DNA from: Candidatus Omnitrophota bacterium
Lineage (GTDB): Bacteria; Omnitrophota; Gorgyraeia; B26-G9; JBDRCZ01
NCBI GenBank assembly: GCA_043821285.1
Contig: JBDRCZ010000017.1
Location: 15,947-79,946 of the forward strand
Direction: 5' to 3'
DNA: 64,000 nucleotides
Shown here: in pieces, positions 29,833-62,900 of the stretch
Layout of the letters: every line of letters starts with the position of its first letter
Position numbering within the stretch: the stretch's first letter is position 1
Program-made: the position numbers and the translations under genes
The notes under the pieces: model-generated
Database searches by the model: none
Told to the model about the DNA's origin: nothing
Seen by the model: the letters and a program-made list of their open reading frames with translations, nothing else

Positions 29833-32820
29833 TTATATTGCTTGCTCTATAAATGTCAGGTTTTGGAATTGCGGTTTTGGAATTGCTGTTGTACTAGGGG
29901 GAAAATTAGGAAGTGGTGGATATCCAAAAAATTCTCTGGCAGTTGGATTTTGAATAGATTCAAAAGTAATCATACTTGGTGTCCCTCTATAAGTAGCTAT
30001 TTCTCCATTTAATTTTATTGTATTTTCATTATAATCATATGTAACAATTACCTGCAGTCTCTTACCTCTCTCTCCGCTTCTTGTGAGAACTAAGACGACA
30101 TTTAGTTCTGTAATTCTGCTTTGCATGGTATAAACTTGTATGCTTCCAATACTTTCAGGTATTTTAAGCTCTTTACTCCCAATTTTTTTACTCTCACTTA
30201 TAACTTCTTCTTCAATAATCTCTAAGCCTTCTGGCGCGTGAATTTCTCGTATCGCTTTCATCACTTCTTGCTTTAAATCTGGTGACAAATTTTGTACTAC
30301 TTCACTATTTTCTATAAATCTTATTTCCCTTGGATCAGTCCTCCGGCGTTCTTTGCCTTTTTTATCATCAAGTTCAAGAAATAGATATCCCCCGGTCGCG
30401 GAATTCCACGAAATCCTTGTTTGACCTTTATCATTGGCAGAAAAATTAATAGTAACATAGTTATTCGGACTGATTGTTAATATTGTTCCTTCACCAAATG
30501 ACGCGTGTTTCACCGTATCCCCTGCCCGCAATAGTGTTCCGTCAGGCAAAATAAGAGTAGGTCGAGCTAAGTTATTAATTACACTTCGTAACGCTATTTG
30601 TAGGTTTCCCTGGGAATTATTTTCAATATCAGGATAATTTTCAAAAAAGTCGTTTTGTGCCTTTTGTATTGCATTATAATGGCCTAATACTGAACAAATA
30701 GCTCCGTGATAGATGTATTCCTGGCGAATTAATGGATTATCCTGTTCACAAATTTGCCTTGATAACACTAAAGCCGGTTCAGGAAATAATTCGTTAAATT
30801 TCGCCTCACCTAAAATATTAATAATCTCTTGTTTTGTTTCTTCTGCATGTGAATAGAATTCAAGCACATAATCATCTTCTTGATTAAACACAACAGCATC
30901 AGTTACAATAATGCGTAATGGTATCTCACTTCCTGCAGTAGTATGCAAATACTTCCTTATTCTTTGTTCTATTTGTTCTATATCTTGCTTAAGATCATCA
31001 GTTTCATCGCGATACTGCCTATGGGAAAGATTATAGAGCATTTGTTTAAACGCACGGTCACCTTTGCGGATAAAGCCGCCTTCATTGTCTGTCGGATTAT
31101 TTTCTTTTGATCCTTCTCCTAATTCAGGAAGAAGGTGATATTGTTCAATTATTGCGGCTATTTCTTCAGGGTCATTTAGATTTCTGTTCCTAATTTTTTC
31201 ATAAACATCCGAATGCCAATTATCAATAGCATCACCTATAGCCTCATTTGACAACTCGCTACCTTGCGTTCGGGTAACTAAAAACATATACGATAATAAT
31301 GATAGTTTCATAGAATTTGGCAGAGTAGGTTCTTTGAGCATTTCTAATGGGGGTAACATACGGTTTTCTAAAACAGTTTTTACTTGTTCTGGAAAATCCT
31401 TCATAATAATAGGCCACAGCTTTAAAAAATTAACCAATGCTTCTTGATTTATTCTTTCAGGTGGAAACGCCTGGGAGTTTTTTTCAACTATTCTTTCTAT
31501 AAAATACAAAACTGCTCTGAGAGAGAAAATTTCTATGTTTGCATTTTGCGGAATTTCAACAGAAGAATTAACCCGTTCTCCATTAACAAGAATTATTGAT
31601 TTTTCAAAAGATAAGTCGTTTGCCTGGTATGTGGCTGAAATATAAGTAAGTAGTTCTGCTACAGTACTGCCTTTAGCAGGAATTCTAATTAATTCGTCAT
31701 TCCTACTGCCAATAAGTGAAGCAGAGATTCCTATTGTGTAAGGTAAAAGACAAACACTTATCCTTTCTTGATAAATTTGGCGTGTCTGTTTAGTTATAAT
31801 TATAGGTTTGCCAGCATTATCCCTTACTTCTACCCTACCCTCGTGTACGGCATGAAGAAGATTAAGAAAATCATCTGTGCTTTTAATTAAATTTTTATCT
31901 TTAGAAGCTAAATCATTCATAAGGCTAAGGGCATTAAGAAGATTTGCCCTATCATAAAGAGGAATCAAGCCTTCATTAATGCAGCGCTCGAGGTCTTCTG
32001 GTGTTTGAATAAATCTTGTATTAACATGAATCTCAAGTATCTTTTTAAGCGGGGCCCCGAGCGGTTCGTATTTACCAAAGATAAAGTTAAGCCCGCTTAT
32101 ATTATACATAGGAATATTCTTTGATATTCTAACTAAAGCATTACCGTATCCAATAAGACAGATTTTGGTCTCTTCAAAATCTTCTCTAGCGATTAAATCC
32201 TGAACCTGTATTAACCCCCTAAGCACCGCCTCTCTCCGAATATCTTGAATGTGTACTATTTCCTCGCGGATTTGCCGCATCGATCCTATCTTGCGCAAAA
32301 TTTGAGTTAATATTTTGGTATAAATTATAAAATGTAATAATTGGTCATCAGCTTCAACAATACCTTGTTTTTCCATTAAATACTGGATTAAAAATGCCCC
32401 ATGTTCAAACACATACTTGTCTTCATCAGAAACGCTATAAAATCTAACCAACCATTTATTAAGCGAACGCTTAAAAGACGATAAGGTATCAAAGCGTTGT
32501 ATAACATTTTTTGTTGCTAACAGGGCACTAAAGATAAGATTATGGATAATGTGACTAATGCCAGTTCTCTTGTTTTCTTGTAAAAGTTTATCAGCATCGA
32601 CTATTATTTTAGCTTCAGCAGATTCTTTTGCTAAAGTATCCGTTGCTTCGCCAGGATCACTAATATCTTTTGCAAAAATATCGCTATTTATGCTTAAGGG
32701 AGGGGCAAGATGGGTGTGTAGGCCTTTTAAATTGTTGCCGGCGGCCCAGGAGAGGTCGAGGCAGAAAAAAGCGTTAATTAGCATAATAACTGTTAGTTTA
32801 AACCAAATACTGCGTTTCAT
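29833..32820 (-). CDS. giant-family protein G1 (995 aa), function unknown
   Basis: N-terminus MKRSIWFKLTVIMLINAFFCLDLSWAAGNNLKGLHTHLAPPL; C-terminus ...NLTFIEQAI. Internal beta-grasp-like ILVNGERVNSSVEIPQNANIEIF and Tudor/UvrD-C-like AGDTVKHASFGEGTILTI. Confidence 0.8.
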   Translation of the reverse strand: MKRSIWFKLTVIMLINAFFCLDLSWAAGNNLKGLHTHLAPPLSINSDIFAKDISDPGEATDTLAKESAEAKIIVDADKLLQENKRTGISHIIHNLIFSALLATKNVIQRFDTLSSFKRSLNKWLVRFYSVSDEDKYVFEHGAFLIQYLMEKQGIVEADDQLLHFIIYTKILTQILRKIGSMRQIREEIVHIQDIRREAVLRGLIQVQDLIAREDFEETKICLIGYGNALVRISKNIPMYNISGLNFIFGKYEPLGAPLKKILEIHVNTRFIQTPEDLERCINEGLIPLYDRANLLNALSLMNDLASKDKNLIKSTDDFLNLLHAVHEGRVEVRDNAGKPIIITKQTRQIYQERISVCLLPYTIGISASLIGSRNDELIRIPAKGSTVAELLTYISATYQANDLSFEKSIILVNGERVNSSVEIPQNANIEIFSLRAVLYFIERIVEKNSQAFPPERINQEALVNFLKLWPIIMKDFPEQVKTVLENRMLPPLEMLKEPTLPNSMKLSLLSYMFLVTRTQGSELSNEAIGDAIDNWHSDVYEKIRNRNLNDPEEIAAIIEQYHLLPELGEGSKENNPTDNEGGFIRKGDRAFKQMLYNLSHRQYRDETDDLKQDIEQIEQRIRKYLHTTAGSEIPLRIIVTDAVVFNQEDDYVLEFYSHAEETKQEIINILGEAKFNELFPEPALVLSRQICEQDNPLIRQEYIYHGAICSVLGHYNAIQKAQNDFFENYPDIENNSQGNLQIALRSVINNLARPTLILPDGTLLRAGDTVKHASFGEGTILTISPNNYVTINFSANDKGQTRISWNSATGGYLFLELDDKKGKERRRTDPREIRFIENSEVVQNLSPDLKQEVMKAIREIHAPEGLEIIEEEVISESKKIGSKELKIPESIGSIQVYTMQSRITELNVVLVLTRSGERGKRLQVIVTYDYNENTIKLNGEIATYRGTPSMITFESIQNPTAREFFGYPPLPNFPPSTTAIPKPQFQNLTFIEQAI

Positions 32821-33140: not shown

Positions 33141-36100
33141 TTAGATTGCTTGCTCTGCTATAAATATATTAGGTACTGTTATTTCTCCGGCACTTGGTAT
33201 ATCTTCAAGTAATGTGTCCGGTGCAAATACATTTTCATTAGCAGGATTGGCTCTTGTGGCTATATCTTTAGCGTTTATAACACGTTGTGAGCGTCTGTCC
33301 TTATGAGCACTAGTGTCATTCGTTTCCTTTTGTAATTTTGCAAGAAGAACCGGATTATCTTTTATTTCACGGTGATTTTTGACGTTGGGAAAAAAACCTG
33401 TTGTCAGTTTTCTTGCGGCGGTTAAATCATCAACAGTTTGAATAATCATTCCTAATTCACCATTTAAATCTTCGCTATGAACAACACCAGCTTCTAATCT
33501 TACCTGCATGCCTAATTCTGAAATCACTTCATTAACTTTGATTTCGATCGCTTTCAAAGTAGCGGCAATTTTTTCCGAAGTAATTATCCCATCATCTTCT
33601 CTATAAGCTCCTGCAAATTGATTATAAACATTGTTATTAATTGATAGAATTACATCATTTCCAACATTGTGGCCAAATACATCATTAATAACCTTAAATC
33701 CAAAATGCAATTGTGCAAATTGTGCATCTCCATTTAAGTCTGTTTCTCTGTAAAACTCTCTGTTGCCGCTTGCTCTTATGAAATCATTTATATTTATGGA
33801 TGTAGAACTAACTATATAATGTGCTGATAGTTTTATCAGTTGTACACGGTTATTTTCTCTTTTTATAACGAGGTAGAACTTATCAGGCCGTTCATGTACA
33901 ATACTGATTGAAACAGCAGATTTGCCGTCTAAAATGTTTTGAATGGTTTTGCCCAACTTATCTCTTTCTATTACCGGGTAAAACTTGTCTAAATCTTCTT
34001 TCGAAATACCCGCATCTATCATTTCCTGACGTATTCTTTCTCCTTCAACTCCTAATTGAAATTTTTTATCGTCAGCTATTTTAATCGGTGATTTTCTCTC
34101 TTCGCGCTCAGGATCTGGGCGTTCGGATAATCCTATTCCTACTAACTTGTTGGCATATTTAGTCCTGCGCTGGGTGTATTCCGCCTCATCTCTAGCAATT
34201 CTTAGTTGTTCCAATAGACTCATTTGGGAAATATTAGGTATATCACTTATTTTTACTGCTCCTACCGGGGCAAAGGGAACATAAACAGGAAAATAAATCT
34301 TACCATTAATATCAATGTCAAGACATTTAAGATTAGCGAGTATCTCGGATAGAACAGTGTTTTCATCCTCTTCTACATCTTTAGTGAACAGTATAAATGT
34401 TTCCTTAGAAGCCTTTTCTTCTTCTGGCGTTAAAAATACTGATTTTGTGACCGTAGTAATGTTTCTTTTTTTATTTTCTCTTAATTTTTCTATCAACGCA
34501 TCTCTGTTACTATCATTTATATTTTTTAGGATTGCAAAAACGTATTTTCCTTCAATCCGTTCTATGACCTTGCGTTGAATTTGTACGAGAAAGTGCTCAA
34601 TAACTTCTTTTGGCAACATAGGTGGTAACAAACCAACAACCTCATCACCACTAACATGATAAACTGTTCTACCTCTTTCTTCAATTTCTTTACGAGCTGC
34701 CTCAATTAATGTGTTAATTGCAAGTATATTCACATTTTCCCAGCCATATACATCATTTCTACCCCTTAGTTCGCTGATGTCAAAGAATATCACCCAAGCA
34801 TTGTCGTCGTGTCTACCTAAAAATACCACTGCTTCTTTTTCCCATTTTTGTGCATTTTCTGGATAGGCTTCATTAAGAAAGTTTCTTACGCGTGTTGTAT
34901 TATCAAATAAAGTGGTTAAATACATTATAAACTCTTGCAGTTCGTTATAGGGTTCGTCAGTATCTTTTCTACTTAAAAGAACATCTATCACCTTAGTAGC
35001 CGCGTCCCTAAATTGCTGATCATTAATATTTTGGTTAATAATTTTTCTCCACTTCTCACCTAAACGCTTTATTTCAGCCTTCAGAAACATTTCTATTGCT
35101 TCCTCATCTTCGCCTTGTTCTTTACACCTATCTACTTCTAATATTACTTTTTCTACATCTGCGCCCAACTCAAAAGCAAAAAATTCCCCATCTCGTTCCT
35201 GACTGGAATTTTCTCTTGGCAAAATGCTTGCCATACCTAAGCTAAATGCTGCGATTAAACCTGCGGTTCCTCCTCCCATCCCTGATTGAAGCATTGATGC
35301 TGCGGAAAATTCTGGTTGAGATGGGAAATAACCAAGTGCTCGCATTAATGTTCCAATAGATGCTGCTAAAAGCACGATGGATATTTTAGGTTTATTTCCA
35401 AACCATGCAACTAACCTCCTAATTAGCGTACCTAACCTGTTCTCATGGGAAGGACTTTTGTTTAATGCCCTCCAACCAGTTGGATGCATAAATGCTACAT
35501 TAGTTGCTTTGCGTCTACGATGAAGAAGTCCGCTTATATTTGCAGGAAATATTATTTTTCTGCTTATCCACTTTTTTACCTCATAAGCAATATATATTAA
35601 TGTTAAAATTATGCCCAAACCAGGTATTACCATACAATCGCTAATAAAATTATTCCACTGTTTAACACGAGCATAACCTTCTCTTACAGTAAAACTATCA
35701 ATAAAAAACTCTTCTCCCATCGGTGGCATGATACCAAACTTAGCAATAAAATCTGCCTGGTTTTTAAATGCTTCTGTTGTTTCTGGATTGATATCAAAAA
35801 AAGGAATAACTAATCGAGCAATGTTAAAAATCAACGTTACTGGGTTATGTTTTATAAGAAATTCCATTGGGTTTTTAGGCAAATTATCGACATGATGACT
35901 TAAACGCACTAATGTAACAGCGTATTCAAAAATTCCTCGCTTAGTAAAGAAATTTAATCCAATATTAGGATTACCCCATGTTCCATTCCATCTTGAACCA
36001 TAGACAATATCAAAATTGCTTTCACGGATAGGTGGATTATTTGTCATAAGAATTTGGTAAGTTTCGGGAGAAACTAATTTTATCAAAAATAGCGCTGGTC

Positions 36101-39100
36101 CAATATGTTCTGCTCCTTCAGTTCCATCTCTTCGCTCAATAAAATCGTCCAACATGCCCGCAGCTTTATATTCATTGTAAAGTTTAATTACGGCTGTATC
36201 GATTTCCTGAGCTCTTTTTCGTGCTGTTGATTCTATAAATGATCCCGTGTTTTCATCAATTTTTGATGCAAGTGGAGAGTTTTGAAATGTTTCAATTAGA
36301 TTATGGAATTCATTTAAAGCTATTTGTAATTCTCCATTATTTTCTTGTAATGATACAGGTTGTGGTAATTCATTAAGTTTTAAACTGTCAGCTGGTGTTG
36401 GCTGTACTAATCCACTTTTTCCAACTGGTTCTAAAGATACAATGTTTAATGGTGCAGCAATTCCGATTGGTGCTAATATGGTCTGTGATCCGATAGCGAG
36501 GATAGTGAGTAAAGGCAATACTACCTTACGTGCAAAAGAGAAGTTAACACTGTGTTTAAAACCCCAGCCAAAAATAGCTAATCCTATCAGTCCTATTGCC
36601 GCAATTACAGCACCTGGCAAACCAAAAAATAACCCTGCAAACCCAATTGCCATAATTAACCCATCGATTGAAAGTGCTGTGGTTCCATTAGGTAACCTAC
36701 GGCTGGAATTATTATCCGGCGCAGTAATCTCTACATTATCTCCATGATTAAACGTCTGTTCTAAGTCTTCTACGCTTCTGGGCAAGCCGTTAACTTTTAA
36801 CACCAACTCCCCAGACTGGAGCATTTTTTGTGTGGTTAGGATGGCTTTGCGATTACGATCATTATAATAAGAAATCTGTGAAGTAATAGTCTTAATAAAT
36901 AAATATGCCAGCAGATCATAGATATTTGTTGCGGGAATCTGTTCTGCTGATATCAGTTCTCTAATACCATCTTGTTGACTATTACTGGCTTCTTTAGTTA
37001 TTGTTAATTGGATTAATGCTTTTTGTTCTTCTTCTTGCAATTTTTGAGTTTGCTGAGTTATTTCATCCTCTAAAAGAGCTAATCCAGCCCTATGCTGCTC
37101 TAAGATATCTTTTTCAGGATCAAATTCCCCTTCAGCACAAATTATTAACCCATTTGGCATAATATAGTAGACTATATTGAGATAGCCATGTGTGCTTTTG
37201 CCGATCATCAGTGAGTTTTTATTATTTAGCCAACCTTCGTACCTTTCCTTATGAAGCATAATTTGTTGGCTATGTGTATAATATCTTAACGTTGCATTAA
37301 TAAAACCTTGCGCATCGGCTTCCTCTTCTTTACGATAAGTAAGTGTTGTTCCATGCCCAATGAAACCATTTTTATAATGTTCAGGTAAGTTCTTCCATTC
37401 TTTGTTCAAACCACTTTCAATCCTTTGATGCAGTGATTTGTTTCCAGGAGCCGGTATGACACGTTCTGGCTCTGATGCTAATATCTCAAAGCTCGTGAAG
37501 GCATAAAAAATATTTTCTCTATCTGTCGCAATACCCATGCGTGTTTGACCCAAATTATCAGTTACTACCTGCCAGGTTGTTAATCCTATTTCTCGAGTAT
37601 ATGCAATTAGCGCCAGTTCGTATATTTCTTCTGTTAATAGTCCATCATTTACCATCCGCACAAAAAGCTTAAGAAATTCGTTGCTGTGATATATAAACCC
37701 GACCAATATTACTAAAGAAATTTTTCTTAATCTTTCTGTTGCGTTCTCTTCCTTTTTGAGTTTACAATAGATTGCTTCTATTGCAGTAACACAATCACTT
37801 TTGTATTCTGAGCCTATTGGATCGTCTTCTAACAAGATATTCCCTAATATCTGAACCGCGTATTCTGTTCCAATATCACCTAAAAGGTTTTTAACAGCCC
37901 TTAGGCGTAAGTAAAGCGGGTTAGTTTTATCATTCAACGCATTTGTCACAAGTTTTTCTGCAGGTTCACCAATTCCTCTTATAATCTCCTCACCAAGCAA
38001 AAGTAAGTTGGTTAAGTTCATATTAATTATATATCTATTTGGTTGTTGAATTAATGTTCTCATTCGCTTAATACAAGATTCAATCACATGTGCTCCCAAT
38101 ATCTCTTTCCTGCCAATTTCAACTAAATAGTCCTTTAAAAGTTCTTTTCTTATGTTAGCAAGCTCATAAGCTGAATGAAAAAATAAAATTATTAAACTAT
38201 CAGTTATTTTATCAACCATTTGTTTAATAATATTGTTTTGGTTTTCTGCTCTGGGATTTATTTTTAATGCATTGGCAATTTCAGTTATAAACTGTCTATC
38301 TCTATCTGATAATTCATCCTGTTGAATTCTATTGTATAAGACGAATAAATATCTTATAAAATAATTGAGTACCTCAATAACAGTTCTAAGAAAATCTAGT
38401 TCAGTTTCGTTAAATACTTCTTTTTTTTCAAATTTTTCCTGTGTCATTTGCTCAAATATTTCTTTTATCAATATAACCACTCGTATTTCATTACGTTCTT
38501 TAAGTATGTTAATAAGTAAACGTCTTATCCTCAGGTCAGAAGATTGAAGCACGTATTCTCTTATGTGGGGAAATGCCCGCTCGACAATATTACCTAACAC
38601 CGAAGAGGCAATTGTAACACGTGTTCCGCGATATATTAATCCCTGTTCACTTAATTCTGTAACAGCAGATTGAAGATTATCTTCTGATTTTTTTGCAATC
38701 TCCGTCAAAATATCAATAATCACATCTTGTTTTTTTTCTCCATGATCAAGCAGGTGCCGGATAGCTTTTACGCCAAACCCTTTAACCAAAATATCTTTAA
38801 TATCAGATGTTATTTCACGATCTTCACTATGAGCTGATAAGGCATCTGTTAAAAGGTCCATTGCCGTTGCAATTGTATCTTCATCTCTATTAGCAAATTC
38901 ACCAAGTTCAGCCATATTATCAGTACGTGAAGCGCGATCTCTATACGTAGCTAACTTATTAATCACATCCTGTATGTAAGCTCTCGTTGTACTATTATAA
39001 CTATTTCTATTGCTAAAATGCTTTGTTGTATCTTCTCCCGGATTGCCCCAATCTTGTAAACTAGAAAAAGGTAACTTTAATCCACCTATTCCGGCAAATG

Positions 39101-39581
39101 TCAGTTTAGGGTTTATGCATTGCCAAAATAAATAAACTACCCCTGTTATCATTAACAATACATAAGGATTATTAAAATAACCATGAGGTATATTAGAAGA
39201 TAAGGAAATAATTATTTGCTTAAGTGGGTATAAGATTGTGCTTAGCGGTATTATATTGCTTATTACCAACACAGAAAATATTGCTAAAGCAGTTATACCG
39301 GCAATATAAGCTAATGTTCTGAATCTGTTTAAAAAGATTGGTGATTCTGTTGTAGGTTGTTTTGTTGTGATGGTAGCTGGGGCATGAGGTGTCATTTTTT
39401 CTCCTGAAATTATGAAAGCATGTTCCGTTACGGAATTAGCTATTTGCAATTCAGGGGCAAGGTGGGTGTGTAGACCTTTTAGATTGCCGCCGGCGGCCCA
39501 GGAAATGTCCAGGCATAAAAAGGCATTGATTAATATTATGGAAATTAGTCTAAAATAAATTTTACGTGTTAAATTATTCAT
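33141..39581 (-). CDS. giant-family protein G2 (2146 aa), multi-pass membrane, two GGDEF-like segments
   Basis: N-terminus MNNLTRKIYFRLISIILINAFLCLDISWAAGGNLKGLHTHLAPEL; C-terminus ...NIFIAEQAI. Several long hydrophobic stretches. Confidence 0.8.
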   Translation of the reverse strand: MNNLTRKIYFRLISIILINAFLCLDISWAAGGNLKGLHTHLAPELQIANSVTEHAFIISGEKMTPHAPATITTKQPTTESPIFLNRFRTLAYIAGITALAIFSVLVISNIIPLSTILYPLKQIIISLSSNIPHGYFNNPYVLLMITGVVYLFWQCINPKLTFAGIGGLKLPFSSLQDWGNPGEDTTKHFSNRNSYNSTTRAYIQDVINKLATYRDRASRTDNMAELGEFANRDEDTIATAMDLLTDALSAHSEDREITSDIKDILVKGFGVKAIRHLLDHGEKKQDVIIDILTEIAKKSEDNLQSAVTELSEQGLIYRGTRVTIASSVLGNIVERAFPHIREYVLQSSDLRIRRLLINILKERNEIRVVILIKEIFEQMTQEKFEKKEVFNETELDFLRTVIEVLNYFIRYLFVLYNRIQQDELSDRDRQFITEIANALKINPRAENQNNIIKQMVDKITDSLIILFFHSAYELANIRKELLKDYLVEIGRKEILGAHVIESCIKRMRTLIQQPNRYIINMNLTNLLLLGEEIIRGIGEPAEKLVTNALNDKTNPLYLRLRAVKNLLGDIGTEYAVQILGNILLEDDPIGSEYKSDCVTAIEAIYCKLKKEENATERLRKISLVILVGFIYHSNEFLKLFVRMVNDGLLTEEIYELALIAYTREIGLTTWQVVTDNLGQTRMGIATDRENIFYAFTSFEILASEPERVIPAPGNKSLHQRIESGLNKEWKNLPEHYKNGFIGHGTTLTYRKEEEADAQGFINATLRYYTHSQQIMLHKERYEGWLNNKNSLMIGKSTHGYLNIVYYIMPNGLIICAEGEFDPEKDILEQHRAGLALLEDEITQQTQKLQEEEQKALIQLTITKEASNSQQDGIRELISAEQIPATNIYDLLAYLFIKTITSQISYYNDRNRKAILTTQKMLQSGELVLKVNGLPRSVEDLEQTFNHGDNVEITAPDNNSSRRLPNGTTALSIDGLIMAIGFAGLFFGLPGAVIAAIGLIGLAIFGWGFKHSVNFSFARKVVLPLLTILAIGSQTILAPIGIAAPLNIVSLEPVGKSGLVQPTPADSLKLNELPQPVSLQENNGELQIALNEFHNLIETFQNSPLASKIDENTGSFIESTARKRAQEIDTAVIKLYNEYKAAGMLDDFIERRDGTEGAEHIGPALFLIKLVSPETYQILMTNNPPIRESNFDIVYGSRWNGTWGNPNIGLNFFTKRGIFEYAVTLVRLSHHVDNLPKNPMEFLIKHNPVTLIFNIARLVIPFFDINPETTEAFKNQADFIAKFGIMPPMGEEFFIDSFTVREGYARVKQWNNFISDCMVIPGLGIILTLIYIAYEVKKWISRKIIFPANISGLLHRRRKATNVAFMHPTGWRALNKSPSHENRLGTLIRRLVAWFGNKPKISIVLLAASIGTLMRALGYFPSQPEFSAASMLQSGMGGGTAGLIAAFSLGMASILPRENSSQERDGEFFAFELGADVEKVILEVDRCKEQGEDEEAIEMFLKAEIKRLGEKWRKIINQNINDQQFRDAATKVIDVLLSRKDTDEPYNELQEFIMYLTTLFDNTTRVRNFLNEAYPENAQKWEKEAVVFLGRHDDNAWVIFFDISELRGRNDVYGWENVNILAINTLIEAARKEIEERGRTVYHVSGDEVVGLLPPMLPKEVIEHFLVQIQRKVIERIEGKYVFAILKNINDSNRDALIEKLRENKKRNITTVTKSVFLTPEEEKASKETFILFTKDVEEDENTVLSEILANLKCLDIDINGKIYFPVYVPFAPVGAVKISDIPNISQMSLLEQLRIARDEAEYTQRRTKYANKLVGIGLSERPDPEREERKSPIKIADDKKFQLGVEGERIRQEMIDAGISKEDLDKFYPVIERDKLGKTIQNILDGKSAVSISIVHERPDKFYLVIKRENNRVQLIKLSAHYIVSSTSININDFIRASGNREFYRETDLNGDAQFAQLHFGFKVINDVFGHNVGNDVILSINNNVYNQFAGAYREDDGIITSEKIAATLKAIEIKVNEVISELGMQVRLEAGVVHSEDLNGELGMIIQTVDDLTAARKLTTGFFPNVKNHREIKDNPVLLAKLQKETNDTSAHKDRRSQRVINAKDIATRANPANENVFAPDTLLEDIPSAGEITVPNIFIAEQAI
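33400..33790 (-). other. GGDEF-like segment 2 of G2 (degenerate)
   Basis: LHFGFKVINDVFGHNVGNDVIL...AYREDDGIITS. The FKxINDxFGHxxGDxxL block is kept, but the signature is degenerate (EDDGI). Confidence 0.5.
34350..34830 (-). other. GGDEF-like (nucleotidyl-cyclase fold) segment 1 of G2
   Basis: VIFFDISELRGRNDVYGW...TVYHVSGDEVVGLLPP parallels DxDxFKxxNDxxGH...RxGGDEFxxxLP. The signature reads SGDEV. Confidence 0.55.
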
Positions 39582-40082: not shown

Positions 40083-40421
40083 GGATTTTGCTAAAAAAAT
40101 ATAGAAAATAACAGATTAAAAGATTCAGGTGATCACGGTTTTAAAACAGTATCAAGGCATTATTTATAACTTATTTATTTATAATATATTATAAAATAAT
40201 TATCGAATATGCCTACATGTTAATTATTCGTGAAATTCGTGTAATTTGTTGTTTAAAAATAAGCAGTTAAAGTTTTTCTTTGTGTGATAAATTTTATTTT
40301 TTACCGCAGAGAAAATCTAAAAGAAATCTCGTTCACAGATGTATGTAAGTTACATCCACTTTCTATTCTTAGTGCGTTACGTAAACGGTAAACTGCCTGC
40401 CTCCCGTTAGGGAGGTAAACT

Positions 40422-40446
40422 AAAAAATTGCCATAGGCAATTTTTT
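40422..40446 (-). terminator. terminator hairpin after G3
   Basis: Minus strand reads AAAAAATTGCC-TAT-GGCAATTTTTT then AGTTTACC. Overlaps the stop codon by 2 nt. Confidence 0.55.
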
Positions 40447-47854: not shown

Positions 47855-47879
47855 TAAAAAATTGCCGCAGCAATTTTTT
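47855..47879 (-). terminator. terminator hairpin after G4
   Basis: Minus strand reads AAAAAATTGC-TGCG-GCAATTTTTT then AGTTTACC. Confidence 0.55.
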
Positions 47880-53553: not shown

Positions 53554-53751
53554 GATTTGTAGATATGTTTATCCATTCCAGATTTTAAAATTCCCCGCCA
53601 TAATGCGTTGACAGGCAGATTCAAAATTTAAATATTTTCTTTGAAACAAGTGTCACATGATTAATCTGATTTTTTATCCTTCTTTATCCTATTAATCCTG
53701 TCTATTTTTTCTGCTTTTTTGTCTTCCAAATTCTGACTTCTGTTTTCTATC

Positions 53752-55287: not shown

Positions 55288-55312
55288 AAAAATTGCCGAT
55301 GGCAATTTTTTT
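55288..55312 (-). terminator. terminator hairpin after G5
   Basis: Minus strand reads AAAAAAATTGCC-ATC-GGCAATTTTT then AGTTTACCGTTTAC. Confidence 0.55.
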
Positions 55313-58300
55313 AGATTGCCTGTTCCACGGCCAAAACCGTATTCAATCCTACTCCTTCAAGTAGCGGAAGTAAAGACATCAATTTCTGCATAGGCTTTTC
55401 ACCCTGCTGTCTGCAACCATCTGGAGTGTCTTTTCTTTCTCCATCTTCCATGAAACTCTGAGAAGCTAAATATCTCATTAGTTCTCCTGTTTGATTAGGA
55501 TTGGTTACTCTTACTATCGTAATATTTTCAACTTTAAGAACTAATCGATCATTACCTCCACTCCAAAATTCATCACCAATATATATGTCAGCTGCTGCAT
55601 CTATTACAGCCGCGGCTTTATCTTCTAAGTTTTCAGTATGTTCTTCTACAAAATCTCCCATTTTTTCATCATAGATGAATTTATGATACCCCGGTTCAGA
55701 GGATATGGTATAAAGAACAAGATTTTTTAATAAACCCTGCTTATCTTTCGGGATAGCAAATAATACCTGGCCTTTTACATTAAATATGTTTCCGCCAGTA
55801 ATTATTCTTAGCTTATATCCAACCTCAAGTAAGTTAAGGAATGCATCCAGATTATCTTCTCCGATTATTCCCCAGTAAGGAACAAGTGTGCCATCCATAT
55901 CTATTCCTATAACCTGAATTTCTTCTAACGGTACATGGCCATTTATAATATCATGGACATTTAATGGAGTATTTTGGGTTGTATCTACTGGGGATAGCGT
56001 GCCAAGTGTTTGTTTTGGGACAAAACTGTTTTCTTGCTCACGCTTTGCTATAAATTTACGGTGTGCAAGGACAATAAAGGTAGAAAGTGCAAGACCTTTA
56101 CCCTGCAATTCTTCTACTGTTTCACGGTTATCTTTAAGCTGCGGATCTAAATATGCCGCCAATAATTGCATAAGCAAAGGTTCATTAAGTAATAAATCTA
56201 CTCCCACGTTAACTTCTTGATAAAGTTTTTTTGCCTTTACATAGTCTGAAAAAAGTTCTCCTAATAACGAGGATTCATTGGTTAATTCCGCATACAAATT
56301 ATCGAATATTTCTTCTACAGATATTAATATATCATTGTACATTTCATCAGAAAGATGGCTTCTTAAAAATTCTTCTTGTTCTTGTACTTTCCACGGAGGT
56401 AGATATTTACTTCTCAAACCGTATTGATTTAAACATTGCTCTAACTTATAAAAGATTATTTGTTCAAGAACACTCTCATTATCAACTTTACTGATCAAAT
56501 TTTCTGGCAAGCGGTTTTTAATAAGATTTTTAAGCAGTGTACCAGTCGCCGATGTACTCAATCCGGTTCCATCAGCAAGTGAGTTTGGTGTCCATTCAAA
56601 AGGCAGCCATTCTGACACAACTATTCCGTGAAGATACTCTCTTCCAAAAGATATTCTTCCTCTTGTTCCTAAACCAAAAGTGTGAAGTTGAATGCCAAAT
56701 TGTTCGTTAAGCTTAGCATTTGTAACAGTGGAAGAGTCAGAATTTTTAAGAAGAGCAGCGAAATGTGCTTCAACCTCTGCTAATGAATCAAGCAAACACC
56801 TTGCTTTATGAAGAGTTACACCAGTTTCAACAATATCATCAATTATAAGAACGTTGCGGTGTTCTCTGAGATACTCGACGACCTTTGTATCATTTAGAAA
56901 TAACCGCAGGTCTTCAGGAGAATCTAAAGAGTATACATCTCTTTCAAAACCCAAACGCACCCTTTCAGCTTCTGTCAATAATGACCAAATTATTGTTGTT
57001 AAATTTAACTTTTGAGTAATAATCCAACTTTGGAATTCAGGTATTTCCTTATTAAATAAGTTATTCGCTTTTAACTGAGTAAGCAAAATTTCCAATGCTT
57101 TGGCAATTGGATCAGCTCCTTTTGAGGGAAAGATAACTAAATTTATATCGTGTTGGATTAAATATTTAACAATAGGAAGAAGTATAGGAGCAAATTGCAA
57201 AACTTGTATGTCTGTTCCTAAAGAATCTATGTCTCCAATTTCTTCACCTAATGCAGCTTCGACCGCCTGCCGAAGCTTTCCAGTATATCTGGAGCGATAA
57301 GGACTACGCAGATATCCTTCAATCGTTGGCAAGTTTTTTGCGATCTCCTTTTCAAGCTCTTCTTCAGCCCTCAAAAACATCTGATGCCCTGTTTCTGTCC
57401 TGAATAAAGTTTCACCCAGAAAATTGCCGTCATCTTTGCCTGATTTTTCATAAAGTCTATACTCTTCTTCAAGGCGCTCTTTATTAGTTTTAAATCTGGC
57501 TCGGATCTGTTCAGGTGTTATTTCTATTCCCGCAGCTTCTAAATCAGCAATAATCCCTTGATAAGTACACATAAATAATCTGTCTGCCTCACGCCATACT
57601 GTTATTAATCTATAAAAAGAAGAAGCATTAGCAAAAGGCCCTTCAAAATTAAACAAAAACTGTCCTTTTTCATATAAAGAAGTATCAACACCCATATTTC
57701 TAAGCTCTACTAAGGCCTGTTCAATAGAAGGATTATCATGAGCTTTTACCACACCACAGATTAAATTTACATTTACATCAGTTGCACTTAAAATACCGGT
57801 TGAAATTAATTGTTGGATTAATTCCCTAATCATTTCGGGGGCTTTTTTCATATGCGCAAGCCTAAACGCGATTGTGTTCTGCGCTAATTCTTTTGCCTTT
57901 AACGAATTTCTCTGTTCAATTTTCTTGCGTATTTGAATAATTCTTGCCCGTGAGCCTTCTAACTTGGCGTACCCAATATCATGTAATAAGGCTAATATTG
58001 CTGCGTTTTTAAATTCTTCATAGGTAAAATCTTCTCCTAATCCAATCTGCACCGCGTTCTCTAAGACTTGAGTATGATGATTTACAGGGTTGCCATTTGC
58101 TCCAGCTTTAAAATGAGGTAAGGCGCTCCAAAAAAGTGTGAAGAGAATATTTTGAATTTCTTGTTTTTGCTGGTCTGTAAATGTGCGGTCTTTTTCAATG
58201 CGGCTTAGTGCATTTTCCAAATTCTGAACTGCTAAACTTTTCTTACACTGAACAAGATAGTAGCCATTCTTTTCTTCAATTACTGCTTCTAATCCATTGT

Positions 58301-59036
58301 CTGTAAGAAATTGTTCAAATTCTGCTTTATTAGAAAAACTAAATCGACCACGTCCAGCGTTTATTGGTTCGGCAATCAATATTTCACCTTCTGAACTAAC
58401 TGCCCGAATATACTCCTTTAATAACTGATCACGTTCTTCACGATTACTAAACATGGTAAAGAACCGAATGCTGACCACTTTAGAAAAACTTCCGTCTTTA
58501 AACCGCATGTCCAAGGCACTGGCTTTTACCAAATCAACATTTTTGCTATCTTGCTTTCTATTTTGAGCAATGTTAAGTAAAATTTCATTGGTATCTAACC
58601 CTGTTATATGTTTGCAAAATTGAGAAATATAAAAAGTGAAATGTCCGGAACCACAACCTATTTCTAAAACTTCATCATCATTATCAATATTAGCTTCAAG
58701 CCAGTCTTTAGGGAAGTCTACAAGATAAGATGCAAGCGTACGATCATAAAAATAGGAAAAATATATCTTTTTGAGCCAATCAACGAGTCTTTCAGTCCAA
58801 GACCTGTGAGGAGAAATATCTCGTGTATCGTTAGGCAGCTTTAGCTGAGTTATATTTATTGTTTCTGCAACGTGTTCTTTAAGAATAGAATTATTTATTT
58901 GCAAAGGCGGAGCAAGGTGGGTGGACAAATTTTTTAAATTACCATTAGCAGCCCAGGAAATATCTAAGCATAAAAAGGCGTTAATTAATATAATCGCTGT
59001 TAGTTTGAATAATATATTTTTTTTAATGTTCAACAT
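55311..59036 (-). CDS. giant-family protein G5 (1241 aa): methyltransferase-HD-PRTase-HAD fusion
   Basis: N-terminus MLNIKKNILFKLTAIILINAFLCLDISWAANGNLKNLSTHLAPPL; C-terminus ...NTVLAVEQAI. GGAGA lies 8 nt upstream of the ATG. Confidence 0.85.
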   Translation of the reverse strand: MLNIKKNILFKLTAIILINAFLCLDISWAANGNLKNLSTHLAPPLQINNSILKEHVAETINITQLKLPNDTRDISPHRSWTERLVDWLKKIYFSYFYDRTLASYLVDFPKDWLEANIDNDDEVLEIGCGSGHFTFYISQFCKHITGLDTNEILLNIAQNRKQDSKNVDLVKASALDMRFKDGSFSKVVSIRFFTMFSNREERDQLLKEYIRAVSSEGEILIAEPINAGRGRFSFSNKAEFEQFLTDNGLEAVIEEKNGYYLVQCKKSLAVQNLENALSRIEKDRTFTDQQKQEIQNILFTLFWSALPHFKAGANGNPVNHHTQVLENAVQIGLGEDFTYEEFKNAAILALLHDIGYAKLEGSRARIIQIRKKIEQRNSLKAKELAQNTIAFRLAHMKKAPEMIRELIQQLISTGILSATDVNVNLICGVVKAHDNPSIEQALVELRNMGVDTSLYEKGQFLFNFEGPFANASSFYRLITVWREADRLFMCTYQGIIADLEAAGIEITPEQIRARFKTNKERLEEEYRLYEKSGKDDGNFLGETLFRTETGHQMFLRAEEELEKEIAKNLPTIEGYLRSPYRSRYTGKLRQAVEAALGEEIGDIDSLGTDIQVLQFAPILLPIVKYLIQHDINLVIFPSKGADPIAKALEILLTQLKANNLFNKEIPEFQSWIITQKLNLTTIIWSLLTEAERVRLGFERDVYSLDSPEDLRLFLNDTKVVEYLREHRNVLIIDDIVETGVTLHKARCLLDSLAEVEAHFAALLKNSDSSTVTNAKLNEQFGIQLHTFGLGTRGRISFGREYLHGIVVSEWLPFEWTPNSLADGTGLSTSATGTLLKNLIKNRLPENLISKVDNESVLEQIIFYKLEQCLNQYGLRSKYLPPWKVQEQEEFLRSHLSDEMYNDILISVEEIFDNLYAELTNESSLLGELFSDYVKAKKLYQEVNVGVDLLLNEPLLMQLLAAYLDPQLKDNRETVEELQGKGLALSTFIVLAHRKFIAKREQENSFVPKQTLGTLSPVDTTQNTPLNVHDIINGHVPLEEIQVIGIDMDGTLVPYWGIIGEDNLDAFLNLLEVGYKLRIITGGNIFNVKGQVLFAIPKDKQGLLKNLVLYTISSEPGYHKFIYDEKMGDFVEEHTENLEDKAAAVIDAAADIYIGDEFWSGGNDRLVLKVENITIVRVTNPNQTGELMRYLASQSFMEDGERKDTPDGCRQQGEKPMQKLMSLLPLLEGVGLNTVLAVEQAI
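55482..55919 (-). other. G5 HAD-superfamily phosphatase-like segment
   Basis: Motif I VIGIDMDGTL and motif IV-like IYIGDEFWSGGND. Confidence 0.6.
56637..57239 (-). other. G5 phosphoribosyltransferase-like segment
   Basis: PRPP-binding-type motif NVLIIDDIVETGVTL preceded by LVIFPSKGADPIA. Confidence 0.65.
57717..58094 (-). other. G5 HD-domain segment
   Basis: HHTQVLENAVQIG...AAILALLHDIGY. Confidence 0.6.
58242..58754 (-). other. G5 class I SAM-dependent methyltransferase segment
   Basis: VLEIGCGSGHFTFYIS (motif I), ITGLDTN, ALDMRFKDGSFSKVVS. Confidence 0.75.
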
Positions 59037-59560
59037 AATAAATATCTCCAGTTATTTAATTTTAAATGTCCCGCCTATCAAACCGGCGACAGGCAAATGA
59101 ATCATTAAATAATTCAATCTTTAAAATTTATTTATGTAATTTGTGTGATTTGTTGTTAATAAAATAAGTACTTGAAATCTTTCTTTGTGTGCTCCGTGTC
59201 TCTGTGTGACAAATCTAATATTTTTGTTTCGCTTGTCCGCCGTGCTCTGTTTGGCGGGTCATTCTGGTTTCGTTATTCGTTATTAAATTATCCTGTCTAT
59301 CATCCACAATGATTGGCGGATCTTCAATTTTTTATATTTTCTCTGTGAACTTTGCGAGCTCTGTGGTGATAAATTTTTTATTTTTTTTTACCGCGATACT
59401 CAATACTCATTGCTTTTTATAGTGTGCGCTCTGTGATGATAATTTTTGTTTTGTTTTTTTAGCCACAATGCTCAATACACAATACCCGATACTTAATCAT
59501 ATTACTTTTCATAATGCCTTGTTATAAATAAATTTATAACATCTTTTAAATAGTTTTATA

Positions 59561-59589
59561 AGTATACCATATAATTACGCAATTTTCAA
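59561..59589 (-). promoter_or_regulatory. sigma70-like promoter for G5(-G4-G3)
   Basis: Minus strand reads TTGAAA, 17-nt spacer, TGG-TATACT. About 520 nt upstream of the G5 ATG. The flanks match the G2 promoter region. Confidence 0.6.
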
Positions 59590-59935
59590 GGGTTTGGGGA
59601 AATTTTTTTTGATTTTGTGATTTCTATGCTTATTGTTTTAACTATTTGGTATTAAAAAAGATATGGCATAGAAAATTAACAACAGCATTATTTAGGCAAG
59701 AATTGATTATATTTTTATTAAAGAAATAAATTGTAAGAGAAAATAATTATTACGATTAGATTTTATTGATTCTAAAATTTTAAATAAATTTTAACTTTAT
59801 TTTTCACCACAGAAAACACTGAGCCCACAAAGAAAAACTTGATACAAATCATACAAATATTTACATGCATAGCCTTCTTCCGTATAATCTGATTCTGCCT
59901 GCCTCCGGTAGGACGGTAAACAGTAAACGGTTAAC

Positions 59936-59960
59936 AAAAAGTTGCCATAGGCAACTTTTT
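59936..59960 (-). terminator. terminator hairpin after G6
   Basis: Minus strand reads AAAAAGTTGCC-TAT-GGCAACTTTTT then GTTAACCGTTTACTGTTTACC. Confidence 0.55.
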
Positions 59961-62900
59961 AAATTGCCTGTTCTATAGCATACACCATATCTAATTCAAA
60001 CAAGTTAATCTCTGGCGCATCATCCGGTTGAGATACAATCATTAGAGCAGTGCTTGGTTTTATAGGAGGATTATTTTGATCTAACTCATCTGGGTCATTG
60101 CGGAAAGACCCATATTCATCTTCGCTCCAGGGATAACAATATATTGAAGTTCCCCCATCCTTTTTTTTCTCAAGAAGACCGTATTCTGATAATCGATTAA
60201 GAACTGTCCTTACCCTGTCTGTGCCCATATATCTATAATTGCGGAATTCATCTCTCAATACCTCAGCAACCTCTGATGCTTTAAACTCCCTACCGTTAGC
60301 AAAATTCGCCCAGACTGTACGAAGTATAACTTTTTCATTACCGGGCTGATTGTTCTCCTGTAGTGTAATATTGTCCCAGTAAGATAAATATGATTGGTCA
60401 AATTCCTCTTTTGACAAATCCCGCAATTCCCGTTTATGTTCTTGGTCAATTGCTGCCATCTCACGATATACAATGCATTTGTTTAAGTGTGCGAGTGACA
60501 GCAATAACGGCACATTTTTTATCTGCCCCTTGTTTATTCTTTGCGTTTCTGATATTCTTAAAATCTGTTTATAATATTCTATTGTTTTGTCATAACACGA
60601 TAGTGCTTTTATATATTCTTCTTTATCATTTTGCTCAAAACCATTTTCCGCATATTCAGCGCCTTCTTCAGCATACCATGCAGCTGCTTCTGTAAAAATA
60701 TCTACTGCACCAGCAAAATATTTTTCCTTAATATATTTACTAGCTAACGCTTTATAAACATTAGCGGACATTGGCATACTGCTATCTGGATAAAATTGTT
60801 TTCCTGTTGACTGGTTACTAGTTCTCGTGTGTGATGGTATTATCATTCTTGCAGGTGTGCTACTTTGGGGAGAAACTCCATTATATGTTGTATCAAAACC
60901 CCTAGTATATGCGAATTGCCATTTTTGTGGTATGATATTTCGTAATACCTCCGCGATAAAGGCAGGTGGGGTTAAAATCCAATTTGCTACCTTGATTAAG
61001 GCTTCAGAATATCTTTTACCTTCTAATTTATCCTCCATCCATTTTAGTACTGTAGCGCGCTGCCAGAAGCCAAGATATTCTCCAAAGAAATAGAAAAATA
61101 CTACTGCTGCCCATCCTCCCACACCCGCCAGGTCAAAAGGTATAATTAAACGGCCCGCACCTCTATTTCTGAGTCTATCTTGTATAACAAAATGCGGCAG
61201 TGGGACATTAAACCTTAATATCTGCCTTTCTCTACTTAATATTAAATCAGCATTGCCTAAATTTGCTTTACCGATAACTTCATCTATAATACTCCTCACA
61301 ATCACTTTTTCTCGATTATTACACCCGCGGTAAATCGCTCTAAAATATTCTCTTAGTAGAGAACGGATCATTATAAGCTGAACATTGTCTTGTCTTATGT
61401 ATACTTCAGCAGCTGAACGTACTGCTATTTCAAGTGCTTCTTGTTTGTGCGCTGGCAATATTCTGTATGTCTGATTAGCCACTGTGCCCCTATCTTGTGT
61501 GACATAAGGGGCTATCACTTTAAAAAGTACATGCCGTGCATCTGCTTGAGAAAGATATACTAATCCTTTTAATGTGTCATCCATGACCGCTTTAGTTAAC
61601 GGGTGTTGTCCTGGATTTTGAATAGAACTGTAAATTCTAGCGATAATTTCTATATTAATTCTCTCTATAGGTGTAGAATCTATTTTAAATTCATAGCTTC
61701 CTACATCGTCTTTTCTAACGGTCTGCACAATTTCATTTACTTTTTGAATAATCTCTTGTCTTTCATCTTTTAAAAGGCCTATATCTTCTCTTGATAAAAA
61801 GCTTGCTAAAAACTCCAGTTCTAATGCTTGCTGAAGAGCATTTTCTGGAGAAAAATTATTAATCCCTTGTTTAAGAGCATCCATCATGGAAACTTCTAAG
61901 TTTATACCAGGGCGATAAGTGTGTAAAAAAAACCTTTTGATATTGATAAATTCTGGCAAAAGAATAACCTCTTTAGTGTCTAAATTTATAGTCTCATTTA
62001 TAGTTTCTTCTAATATAGAGCTAAACGGGCGAAGAAGTACTAATCTTTCATAAAGAGTCTCATCTGAATGAAAAAATGTTAAATAGATCACAAGTCTTAA
62101 ATAATAATCCGCCAGAAAAACACCATCTACAGTAAACTCTATGTTACCATCTTTATCTCTACGGCTTACAGTTAAACATTTGTACAAAAAATTATCTATC
62201 TCTGTAAGCATCCGATATAAGATTTCCATCGCGGTTTCTGTATTCTGTTCTAAGGCAAGCTCAAGAACATTAGTGACATTTGAGAAATCTTGCAAAACAA
62301 CATATTCTTTAAGAACACCCCATAGACTATCAAACAACTCATGGTCTTCACGATGATAAGCAAATGCAGCCAGGCCAACAAATGACGCTAAGTTTGCTTT
62401 TAAATTTAAACCGGTATTTATCAAATAGCTTATTTCCTTTTCTATATAAATGAGTATAATTTTAGAAACATCACCTCCGGCAATAAAGGTATAAACAATC
62501 ACTGCAAAAAGGGCGTCGTGTAATTCCTCATCTTCCGGAGATATATTTAATCGTTGAAGTATTTCAGCCAACACTGCTATTACCATATCAATTTCTTCGA
62601 TATTATCTTGTATATGCACGCGCATTTTATTAATAAAAAATACCAAAACATGGCGAAGTTCATTTTTTAGATGACTGTCCAATTTTTCCCAGTCTCCTTC
62701 TTCCGTTTCTGTTAAACTTTGTATTTCAGCTTGGACACGGTCTAATTCTTCATTCAACGAGTTTATTCTTTCTGTATTTGAAGGGGCCGGACTTCTCTGT
62801 CTCTGTCTTTGTCTCTGCCGCCTTGAGCTTCTTGGTTCTGACCTACGCTGTAAGTTTTGTATTTCCCGGGTAATCTCTTGCTCTCGCCCTTTCAGCGCCG

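Follow-up and report, generated by a model that had tools for sequence, protein, structure and literature searches.

Why do six very long genes, whose products are mostly unrelated along their bodies, all finish in nearly the same few amino acids? The question is posed by a 64,000-nucleotide stretch of DNA from a Candidatus Omnitrophota bacterium (contig JBDRCZ010000017.1, positions 15,947 to 79,946; this whole stretch is called the window below). In its right half (29.8-64 kb), six very long open reading frames (ORFs), G1-G6, lie in an array on the minus strand, and each closes with a short C-terminal tail. According to the original prediction, the tail, EQAI, is conserved as amino acids, and its constancy does not simply result from the terminator DNA behind the genes. 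Comparison with relatives from other samples and genomes strongly supports the view that the tail is under purifying selection as a peptide.

On re-reading, the terminal codons of the six genes proved to be exactly those given in that prediction. With the stop, they read on the minus strand TTT ATA GAG CAA GCA ATA TAA in G1 (29833..29853), ATA GCA GAG CAA GCA ATC TAA in G2 (33141..33161), GAA ATT GAA CGG GCA ATT TAA in G3 (40445..40465), GCA GTA GAA CAA GCA ATC TAA in G4 (47878..47898), GCC GTG GAA CAG GCA ATC TAA in G5 (55311..55331) and GCT ATA GAA CAG GCA ATT TAA in G6 (59959..59979). EQAI itself is found in five of the six; G3 ends ERAI. The pattern GARCRRGCAATHTAA matches the window six times, always on the minus strand (29833, 33141, 40445, 47878, 55311 and 59959), where chance predicts no match, and the six matches are exactly the six gene ends. 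Among the 895 stop-to-stop ORFs of at least 30 residues in the window, the ending E[QR]AI belongs to G1-G6 only, and the other ORFs ending in AI are two tiny ones of 40 and 31 residues. Within this genome the codon test covers just the six window genes; exact look-ups of G1 and of the family proteins P0001, P0010 and P0031 gave no record. Their tail Ala codon is GCA in every case, as against 41% GCA usage in the same genes, and the rare ATC (13% usage) supplies three of the six tail Ile codons. Since GCA is invariant, the evidence from synonymous variation in the window rests on the Glu, Gln and Ile codons. Taken alone, the six-gene argument is suggestive and not compelling, as the ends of paralogs could share ancestry.

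A wider sample of tails came through the other end of the proteins. G1-G5 begin with a common leader of 45-50 residues, 23 positions of which are invariant; the ORF of G6 is open to the window edge, and its leader or N-terminus lies outside. An index-free HMMER profile search with 45 leader residues against 1.84 billion representative proteins retrieved 62 protein clusters. All clusters with a source name are from Omnitrophota, and at least 28 of the 62 come from the window's own metagenome-assembled genome (MAG), ABH952; of the family genes in that genome, six make up the array in the window. A word-indexed protein search with leader alignments returned a single, uninformative match of 67 residues, and a leader-alignment scan of genome and metagenome contig collections (without the window's genome) gave no confirmed locus.

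Of 30 clusters with a length of at least 800 residues, 27 have tails ending in [AS][IV], as do 40 of the 62 overall. Two of the three long exceptions (P0006 and P0036) are annotated as partial by NCBI, as is the 751-residue P0017, so these proteins have probably been cut at a contig end. Most of the short exceptions resemble fragments or leader-only remnants. In ABH952 itself, the leader occurs without the tail in P0001 (67 residues), P0007 (118), P0020 (310) and P0014 (402); such short ORFs share contigs with full-length paralogs, and the accession of P0007 directly precedes that of the 3366-residue P0019. Recombination or pseudogenisation at the conserved 5′ end may have left them behind.

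With 53 distinct tails anchored at the C-terminus, the information content is 1.3 bits at position -5 (L, F, A or I), 2.1 at -4 (I or V), 1.7 at -3 (E before D, G and N), 2.2 at -2 (Q before R, S and E), 3.3 at -1 (A before S) and 3.2 at position 0 (I). Conservation is limited to these last six residues; upstream lie a weak hydrophobic periodicity and a proline-rich linker that cannot be aligned. The tails of ABH952 (EQAI, ERAI, MEAI, EASI, QEAI, GEAI, ESAI, EMAI, DQAI and QAAI) vary at positions -3 and -2 and are constant in Ala/Ser-Ile. On these alignments, the conserved unit is the hexapeptide [LFAI]-[IV]-x-x-[AS]-I-COOH and not EQAI, of which E and Q are merely the commonest residues. The hexapeptide occurs internally 5 times in 88,528 family residues, compared with about 3 estimated for chance from residue frequencies; without internal enrichment, the motif is a property of the terminus.

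The DNA of relatives bears directly on the level at which the tail is conserved. Four loci from other samples (L001, Logan SRR33089659; L002, GCA_004196255.1; L003, JGI 3300033148; L004, Logan SRR22388163) hold 17 further family genes, including that of a 6278-residue protein and the ends of two giants, of 8365 residues (L001, ending LINNAI) and of 6877 residues (L002, ending LVESAA). Together with the six window genes they form a set of 23. Position -1 is encoded in this set by GCA (10 genes), GCG (7), GCT (2), GCC (1), TCC (1), TCG (1) and TCA (1), and position 0 by ATT (10), ATA (6) and ATC (5), two variant tails ending in Ala. The stop is TAA in 18 genes, TAG in 4 and TGA in 1. The 50 nucleotides after the stop are unrelated between genomes, some containing other hairpins and some none. 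When 185,579 species genomes were scanned for the DNA pattern of LDIAWAGG, 52 stretches were found, 7 of them in a genuine leader context, and all 7 were in Candidatus Omnitrophota MAGs. These GTDB Omnitrophota loci contributed eight more genes ending in …QAI, …SAI, …HSI or …NAI. The full DNA set amounts to 23-31 family genes, from the window and nine loci of other Omnitrophota samples or MAGs.

The tail thus persists with every Ala codon, with three Ser and three Ile codons, with all three stops and before unrelated flanks, which bears out the claim that selection acts on the peptide and that the terminator is not its source. Nowhere in the relatives' DNA does the tail vary freely where the hairpin differs. 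Within one genome, the ABH952 members (at least 28) effectively provide a genome-wide alignment of the family, and Ala/Ser-Ile stays fixed in it.

The rival explanation places the cause in RNA or DNA: GCAAT(T/C)TAA would be held by pairing with the 5′ arm of the terminator, or the gene ends would have been homogenised by conversion. The invariant GCA of the window speaks for it, as does the homology of the 3′ flanks and 5′ untranslated regions (UTRs) of the paralogs. An AATTGCC/GGCAATT hairpin had been reported behind G3-G6. It is present, but with arms one base shorter in G4 (AATTGC/GCAATT) and as AGTTGCC/GGCAACT in G6. In minus-strand orientation the terminators are AAAATTGCC-TAT-GGCAATTTT in G3 (40421..40447; with the stop codon in the stem, TAAAAAATTGCC-TAT-GGCAATTTTTTA), AAAATTGC-TGCG-GCAATTTT in G4 (47855..47880; also given as TAAAAAATTGC-TGCG-GCAATTTTTTA), AAAAATTGCC-ATC-GGCAATTTTT in G5 (55288..55310) and AAAGTTGCC-TAT-GGCAACTTT in G6 (59935..59961; also given as TAAAAAGTTGCC-TAT-GGCAACTTTTTG), the last with a compensatory A:T to G:C change. 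Also as reported, the hairpin of G1 is a different one, an A/T-rich palindrome unrelated to that of G3-G6 (TTTTTTGTC-TTAT-GACAAAAAA, also given as TAATTTTTTGTC-TTAT-GACAAAAAATTA; 29808..29835, minus strand), and G2 has none (0.0 kcal/mol in the 50 nucleotides after the stop). That G1 and G2 keep the tail without the G3-G6 hairpin speaks against the rival, and so do the 25 genes from other samples and MAGs in which it is kept despite different codons and stops and an unrelated 3′ sequence. A further argument against simple homogenisation is that paralogs cannot be aligned in the stretch directly before the tail.

It had also been proposed that the last codons, the stop and the terminator of G3-G6 form three mutually complementary segments, through which terminator folding could become coupled to the end of translation. 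Stems of 12-13 bp are predicted to reach back into the stop codon in G1, G3, G4 and G6. When the last 30 nucleotides were folded with 45 nucleotides of 3′ UTR, the minimum-energy structure of G3-G6 was the terminator, a stem of 10-13 bp at or next to the stop followed by a T-run, with a total of -19 to -26 kcal/mol. For the coding end to pair with the 5′ arm, the 3′ arm has to be withheld. The alternative hairpin then reaches -9 to -10 kcal/mol, a point in favour of an RNA-level cause, and the truncated folds total -6 to -12 kcal/mol. The alternative pairing foreseen in the proposal therefore appears under that restriction, and the terminator remains the minimum-energy fold. A ribosome footprint of 15 nucleotides, counted from the first stop-codon base, masks segments 1 and 2 together and abolishes both hairpins. 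Between these two segments lie no more than the stop codon and a few A residues. A ribosome at the stop would therefore cover the 5′ arm too and, unlike in classical attenuators, could not expose one segment while masking the other. G3-G6 do resemble attenuators and other stop-abutting terminators in that a stem-loop with a U-tract starts at the stop, where a ribosome would block it. They differ in that the alternative pairing is far weaker than the terminator, lies immediately adjacent and is not conserved in the family.

Codon choice gives a mixed answer. All synonymous versions of the last five codons were enumerated and weighted by usage. The observed codons are near-optimal for the alternative pairing in G3 (P = 0.04) and G6 (P = 0.055), as the rival would have it, and show no such preference in G5 (P = 0.15) and G4 (P = 0.55). 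The genes are not independent, and the codons offer only a weak hint of choice for pairing. Homology between the 3′ flanks of G3-G6 extends far past the hairpin, with a common TTTAGTTTACC, a second hairpin, CCTCCCTAACGGGAGG-CAGGCAG, and TTTACCG repeats, and the whole G3-to-G2 and G6-to-G5 spacers agree at 74% over the alignment. The three-segment arrangement is therefore one inherited event and not four independent ones. It is absent from G1, G2 and the 17 genes of L001-L004. A coupling of translation termination to terminator folding thus lacks general support: the arrangement is confined to G3-G6, the terminator dominates and the codon bias is weak. A local regulatory role in those four genes is conceivable, though none of these results calls for one. 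We read the structure as an ordinary stop-abutting terminator that happens to use the conserved GCAAT of the Ala-Ile codons, or that arose by its inverted duplication. The GGCAATT/AATTGCC terminator is a local feature of the 3′ flank, inherited with gene duplication, and does not cause the conservation of the tail. A nucleic-acid cause of that conservation is accordingly very improbable, and the codons, stops and flanks of the relatives refute it.

If the peptide is what selection sees, what accompanies it? The leader of G1-G5 has the consensus M-x-x-(K/R)…F(K/R)L…ILINAFLCLDISWAAGGNLKGLHTHLAPPLxI. It is 47 residues long in G1 (32680..32820, minus strand), with LTVIMLINAFF as the h-region, CLDLSWA|A as the c-region and NLKGLHTHLAPPLxI as the mature motif, and 50 residues long in G2 (39432..39581), G3 (47387..47536), G4 (53404..53553) and G5 (58887..59036), all on the same strand. 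Inspection of G1-G5 and 60 relatives gives one layout: a basic n-region with K/R, an h-region of about 13 residues (...ILI(N/Q/H)(A/S)FL.L in the family) and a polar c-region ending in small-W-A|A/G (D-I-(S/A)-W-A|(A/G)-G). From this n/h/c layout and the cleavage-type site we infer, by inspection and with no predictor run, a Sec-type signal peptide. A second conserved motif, L-(A/S)-P-x-φ-x-I, follows about 10-25 residues into the mature chain. The leader DNA of G1-G5 differs at many third codon positions, which indicates that the leader too is conserved as protein. Two other readings of the leader were rejected or set lower. Its Cys stands in the context A-F-L-C, which is no lipobox, and is Leu in most relatives, so that a lipoprotein is not indicated. 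A double-glycine (C39) leader is less favoured than a signal-peptidase I site: GG after W-A is common, yet it varies, being replaced by N-G, N-S, A-D and others in G4, G5, P0019, P0050 and P0052. Neither the leader nor the tail is covered by any Pfam or NCBIfam model.

Between these two ends the bodies are of many kinds. G1 (29833..32820, minus strand, as are all six; 995 residues) has a weak ThiS-like match before its tail FIEQAI. G2 (33141..39581; 2146 residues) has several hydrophobic segments and a weak GGDEF-like stretch before IAEQAI. The body of G3 (40445..47536; 2363 residues), which ends EIERAI and is identical to the NCBI protein MFH1776244.1 (ABH952_01585) of a Candidatus Omnitrophota bacterium MAG, encoded on an 86-kb contig, is without a Pfam match; the bodies of G1 and G3 have almost no domain matches in Pfam or NCBIfam. 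G4 (47878..53553; 1891 residues, ending AVEQAI) carries transketolase modules, and G5 (55311..59036; 1241 residues, ending AVEQAI) a class I methyltransferase with weak phosphoribosyltransferase (PRTase) and HAD matches. Of G6 the window holds the C-terminal 1346 codons (59959..63999), with SNAP/TPR-like and winged-helix matches and the tail AIEQAI. By eye, a region in the C-terminal third of G3 can be aligned with one in the middle of G6 (…DWE.I..L…FF.NK…; …NVQLMMLRPFFEQC… vs …NVQLIMIRSLLREY…). The array therefore exchanges or duplicates body segments as well, and not ends alone.

The same diversity is found throughout the family. Its bodies range from 150 to more than 8000 residues, are mostly unrelated and consist of cytoplasmic-type enzyme domains, often with internal membrane helices. 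The domains include transketolase (G4), phosphoglycerate kinase (PGK; P0022), phosphoglucose isomerase (PGI; P0054), pyruvate phosphate dikinase (PPDK; P0050), ROK kinase (P0046, together with PHP), HAD phosphatase, SAM (S-adenosylmethionine) methyltransferases and GGDEF-like domains. The 6877-residue giant with the variant tail LVESAA (L002, 1-429) has SecA_DEAD, SecA_PP_bind and glucan-synthase matches. The next gene of that locus (481-834) has 23S_rRNA_IVP/bAvd matches, the fold of accessory proteins of diversity-generating retroelements. The idea that the giants are fused family modules was rejected, as tail-like motifs are not enriched internally and there is one marginal internal leader-like segment (P0029).

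The tail, then, is strictly terminal, sits on unrelated cargo after a variable linker, accompanies a Sec-type leader, and is confined to one phylum and expanded within genomes. Variable cargo and linker combined with invariant terminal residues, together with the analogy to known C-terminal signals, point to a role in recognition or sorting. On balance we lean towards the tail being a sorting, export or anchoring tag that is read at the free C-terminus. After translation is finished, a dedicated partner would read that terminus and sort, export, anchor or dock the protein in the cell envelope. The tail, carried on its proline-rich and poorly conserved linker, would probably form a short helix or strand of amphipathic character that closes with Ala-Ile-COO-. 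Placed at the very C-terminus, such a tag could also certify that synthesis of a very long polypeptide has been completed. Our best reading of the two ends together is that they would mark an Omnitrophota-specific class of exported or membrane-associated multi-enzyme proteins, including giants of several thousand residues.

Several points weigh against such a tag. The invariant GCA of the window means that shared ancestry or gene conversion does contribute to the local similarity of the DNA. The cargo domains need cytoplasmic cofactors (ATP, thiamine diphosphate (TPP), SAM and GTP) and fit poorly with simple periplasmic export; they would fit either delivery into the cytoplasm of another cell or a topology other than the one suggested by the leader. 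The number of helices between leader and tail, by the crude Kyte-Doolittle method, ranges from 0 to 13, odd and even, with no consistent parity. No candidate receptor or sortase-like gene is evident among the other ORFs of the window, and no sortase, exosortase or rhombosortase gene was found among them or in loci L001-L004. In those four loci a small, cytoplasmic PilZ protein is the sole recurrent neighbour. Finally, AlphaFold2 was uninformative on P0024, a member of 152 residues (pLDDT 43.6).

The terminal Ala-Ile might instead be a degron or processing site, read by a tail-specific/PDZ or a cytoplasmic AAA+ protease that controls turnover or maturation. Such proteases do attend to chain ends: Prc/Tsp and ClpXP read the last 2-5 residues of their substrates, examples being …LAA in the ssrA tag and …RRKKAI in MuA. 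The last two residues of the family are likewise small and hydrophobic, nearly invariant and strictly terminal, and giant proteins would be plausible targets of quality control. However, positions -5 to -2 are conserved as well, with an acidic residue at -3, whereas ssrA-like tails are apolar and MuA-like ones basic. It is also hard to see why some 30 unrelated enzymes of one genome should all be marked for degradation, and neither the window nor loci L001-L004 link a protease to the family. We regard this explanation as unlikely.

Docking is another explanation. The N-terminal mature motif and the C-terminal tail could bind each other or a common scaffold, so that enzyme modules encoded apart from one another would be chained together or attached to the giant proteins, as a non-covalent counterpart of the giant polyproteins. 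The docking domains of polyketide synthases and nonribosomal peptide synthetases (PKS/NRPS) and the donor-strand exchange of pili are precedents for end-to-end assembly. Conserved short motifs do stand at both ends of otherwise unrelated bodies, and the giant relatives (the 6278-residue protein and the fragments of the 8365- and 6877-residue ones) have the same tail and the same kinds of domain. Yet the long proteins contain no internal relics of tail-leader junctions, and the AlphaFold2 model of P0024 lends no structural support. Docking seems to us a little less likely again than a protease site.

The reading that we favour, a tag recognised at the free C-terminus, can be extended. In its boldest form, the leader, the mature motif and the …[IV]-E-Q-A-I-COOH tail would serve as the address label for a pathway that is peculiar to Omnitrophota and hitherto undescribed. 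This pathway would export dozens of metabolic and signalling enzymes of cytoplasmic type, up to giant polyproteins, onto the cell coat or into prey or host, or would dock them end-to-end in megacomplexes. We hold this extension to be doubtful. If it were true, reading of the free C-terminus would restrict the pathway to chains whose translation is complete.

Other features of the window touch the array from its flanks. The spacers 39582-40444 and 59037-59958 (minus strand), about 0.9 kb each, run from G3 to G2 and from G6 to G5 and are mutually homologous. Both have a promoter-like TTGAAA-17-(TG)GTATACT about 480 nucleotides upstream of the ATG and are filled with short word repeats (CACAGAG, GTATTGAG and CAGAA). 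The promoter-like element and the repeats imply long, repeat-rich 5′ UTRs or unannotated small RNAs. About 35 nucleotides before the ATG of G2 and G5 there is a conserved hairpin element of the 5′ UTR, TTTGCCTGT-CGCCGGTTTGATAGGCGG-(G/A)ACATTT, with variants before G3 and G4; the approximate minus-strand sites are 39600-39640 (G2), 59055-59095 (G5), 47640-47700 (G3) and 53570-53610 (G4). The second hairpin of the 3′ flanks, CCTCCCTAACGGGAGG-CAGGCAG, looks like its inverted counterpart in G3, G4 and G6. The two may be REP-like (repetitive extragenic palindromic) elements or regulatory hairpins. Two transposase genes accompany the array: one of the DDE_5 type (53922-54986, plus strand), inserted between G5 and G4, and an IS200-like Y1 gene (27148-27954, minus strand) directly downstream. 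Another Y1 transposase gene (L001 13283-13951) stands amid the family genes of the unrelated locus L001. The Y1 transposases, perhaps REP-associated, may be linked to the repeat-rich spacers.

The left half of the window holds housekeeping genes (ThiC, GuaA, DnaE, HisRS and AroB) and a PilZ-fused ATPase of the type found in type II secretion systems and type IV pili (T2SS/T4P; 11321-12718, plus strand). Near the latter, 13 kb from the array, is the gene of a small PilZ protein (16622-17125, plus strand), a homologue of those encoded behind family or giant genes elsewhere in Omnitrophota; it is coupled to a phosphodiesterase of the GAF/HD-GYP type (HD_5; 17125-18621, plus strand). These components of cyclic di-GMP signalling (PilZ, HD_5 and the PilZ-ATPase) might regulate the same pathway. 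The G+C content of the window is about 36%, and tRNA-Gly is the sole match to Rfam at gathering thresholds in the whole window.

The tail matters beyond this array as a testable handle on how Omnitrophota manage their unusual large proteins, a function for which the argument is drawn from sequence comparison. A rule made of the leader and the six-residue tag would define the family objectively and link proteins of 150 residues to giants of 6-8 thousand. It would let the client list of the pathway be read from any genome; for ABH952 the list has at least 28 entries, including transketolase and PGK-, PGI- and PPDK-type enzymes. A synthetic tail peptide would be a concrete bait for finding the receptor, and the tail offers a cheap check of the 3′ completeness of giant ORFs in MAGs.

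How does the family compare with what is already known? The nearest kin are in the same phylum. Omnitrophota are ultra-small, uncultured and probably predatory or parasitic bacteria, and no known prokaryotic proteins are longer than theirs (West-Roberts et al., 2023, bioRxiv 10.1101/2023.11.21.568195; 2026 complete-genome preprint, 10.64898/2026.06.07.730766). The Archaeovorin-type giants described there share with our family the methyltransferase, HAD, GGDEF, PPDK, ROK and HEAT/TPR domains, the signal peptide and the internal membrane helices. Small pilZ genes downstream, as in loci L001-L004, and GH2 genes nearby are further points of likeness of the related loci, although in the window the only pilZ homologue is the one 13 kb from the array; the small PilZ neighbour of giant genes had already been noted in the 2023 preprint (10.1101/2023.11.21.568195). 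The Archaeovorin-type giants exceed 30 thousand residues and contain SecA_DEAD, whereas the window proteins have 1-2.4 thousand (995-2363 in G1-G6) and no SecA match. The window proteins clearly belong to the world of the Omnitrophota giant or Archaeovorin-type proteins. Term searches of papers on Omnitrophota and its giant proteins yielded no description of a shared leader or of a motif at the C-terminus, and a text search that combined Omnitrophota with C-terminal sorting signals was likewise empty.

Among sorting systems, LPXTG/sortase, PEP-CTERM/exosortase, GlyGly-CTERM/rhombosortase and PGF-CTERM/archaeosortase are similar in that a signal peptide and a short C-terminal signature mark lineage-restricted, unrelated paralogs and can be recognised by sequence comparison alone. 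Their signals are tripartite, however, consisting of a motif, a transmembrane helix and a basic cluster, while the Omnitrophota tail is the last six residues with nothing after it. Since no helix or basic cluster follows the motif, the family falls outside the sortase-type class.

Some type I secretion system (T1SS) substrates offer a likeness at the very end. In PrtG, the extreme C-terminal DVIV has an acidic residue followed by hydrophobic ones. The common element is a stretch of 4-6 terminal residues, acidic and then apolar, which would act only at a free end and so allow export of none but completed, often very large proteins. The T1SS substrates have no Sec leader and carry their secretion signal in the C-terminal 50 or so residues, in contrast to the Sec-type leader and six-residue tail of the Omnitrophota family. 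The RTX motif GGxGxD has no match in G1-G6, and no genes for the ATP-binding cassette or membrane-fusion components (ABC/MFP) were found in the window. The Sec leader and the absence of RTX repeats thus set the family apart from T1SS substrates.

Ligands of PDZ domains and carboxylate clamps show that the cell envelope does read free C-termini. The Y-x-F of outer-membrane proteins is read by DegS, the ssrA tag by Tsp/Prc, and the C-termini of pilus subunits are bound by PapD. The likeness lies in the use of the last residues and the free carboxylate, with a hydrophobic residue at the end, a prerequisite seen in the sequence of the Omnitrophota tail. The sequence itself is different, the invariant positions of the Omnitrophota tail being -1 (Ala/Ser) and 0 (Ile). 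Eukaryotic sorting supplies the formal parallel: KDEL/HDEL and the peroxisomal targeting signal PTS1 (SKL) are terminal tetra- or tripeptides that stand on diverse cargo and are read by a receptor, and KDEL also goes with a signal peptide. As these belong to another domain of life, with another sequence and other machinery, the comparison is an analogy only. Set beside these systems, the Omnitrophota tail is best classified as a C-terminal recognition signal that is defined by comparative genomics and has a putative machinery.

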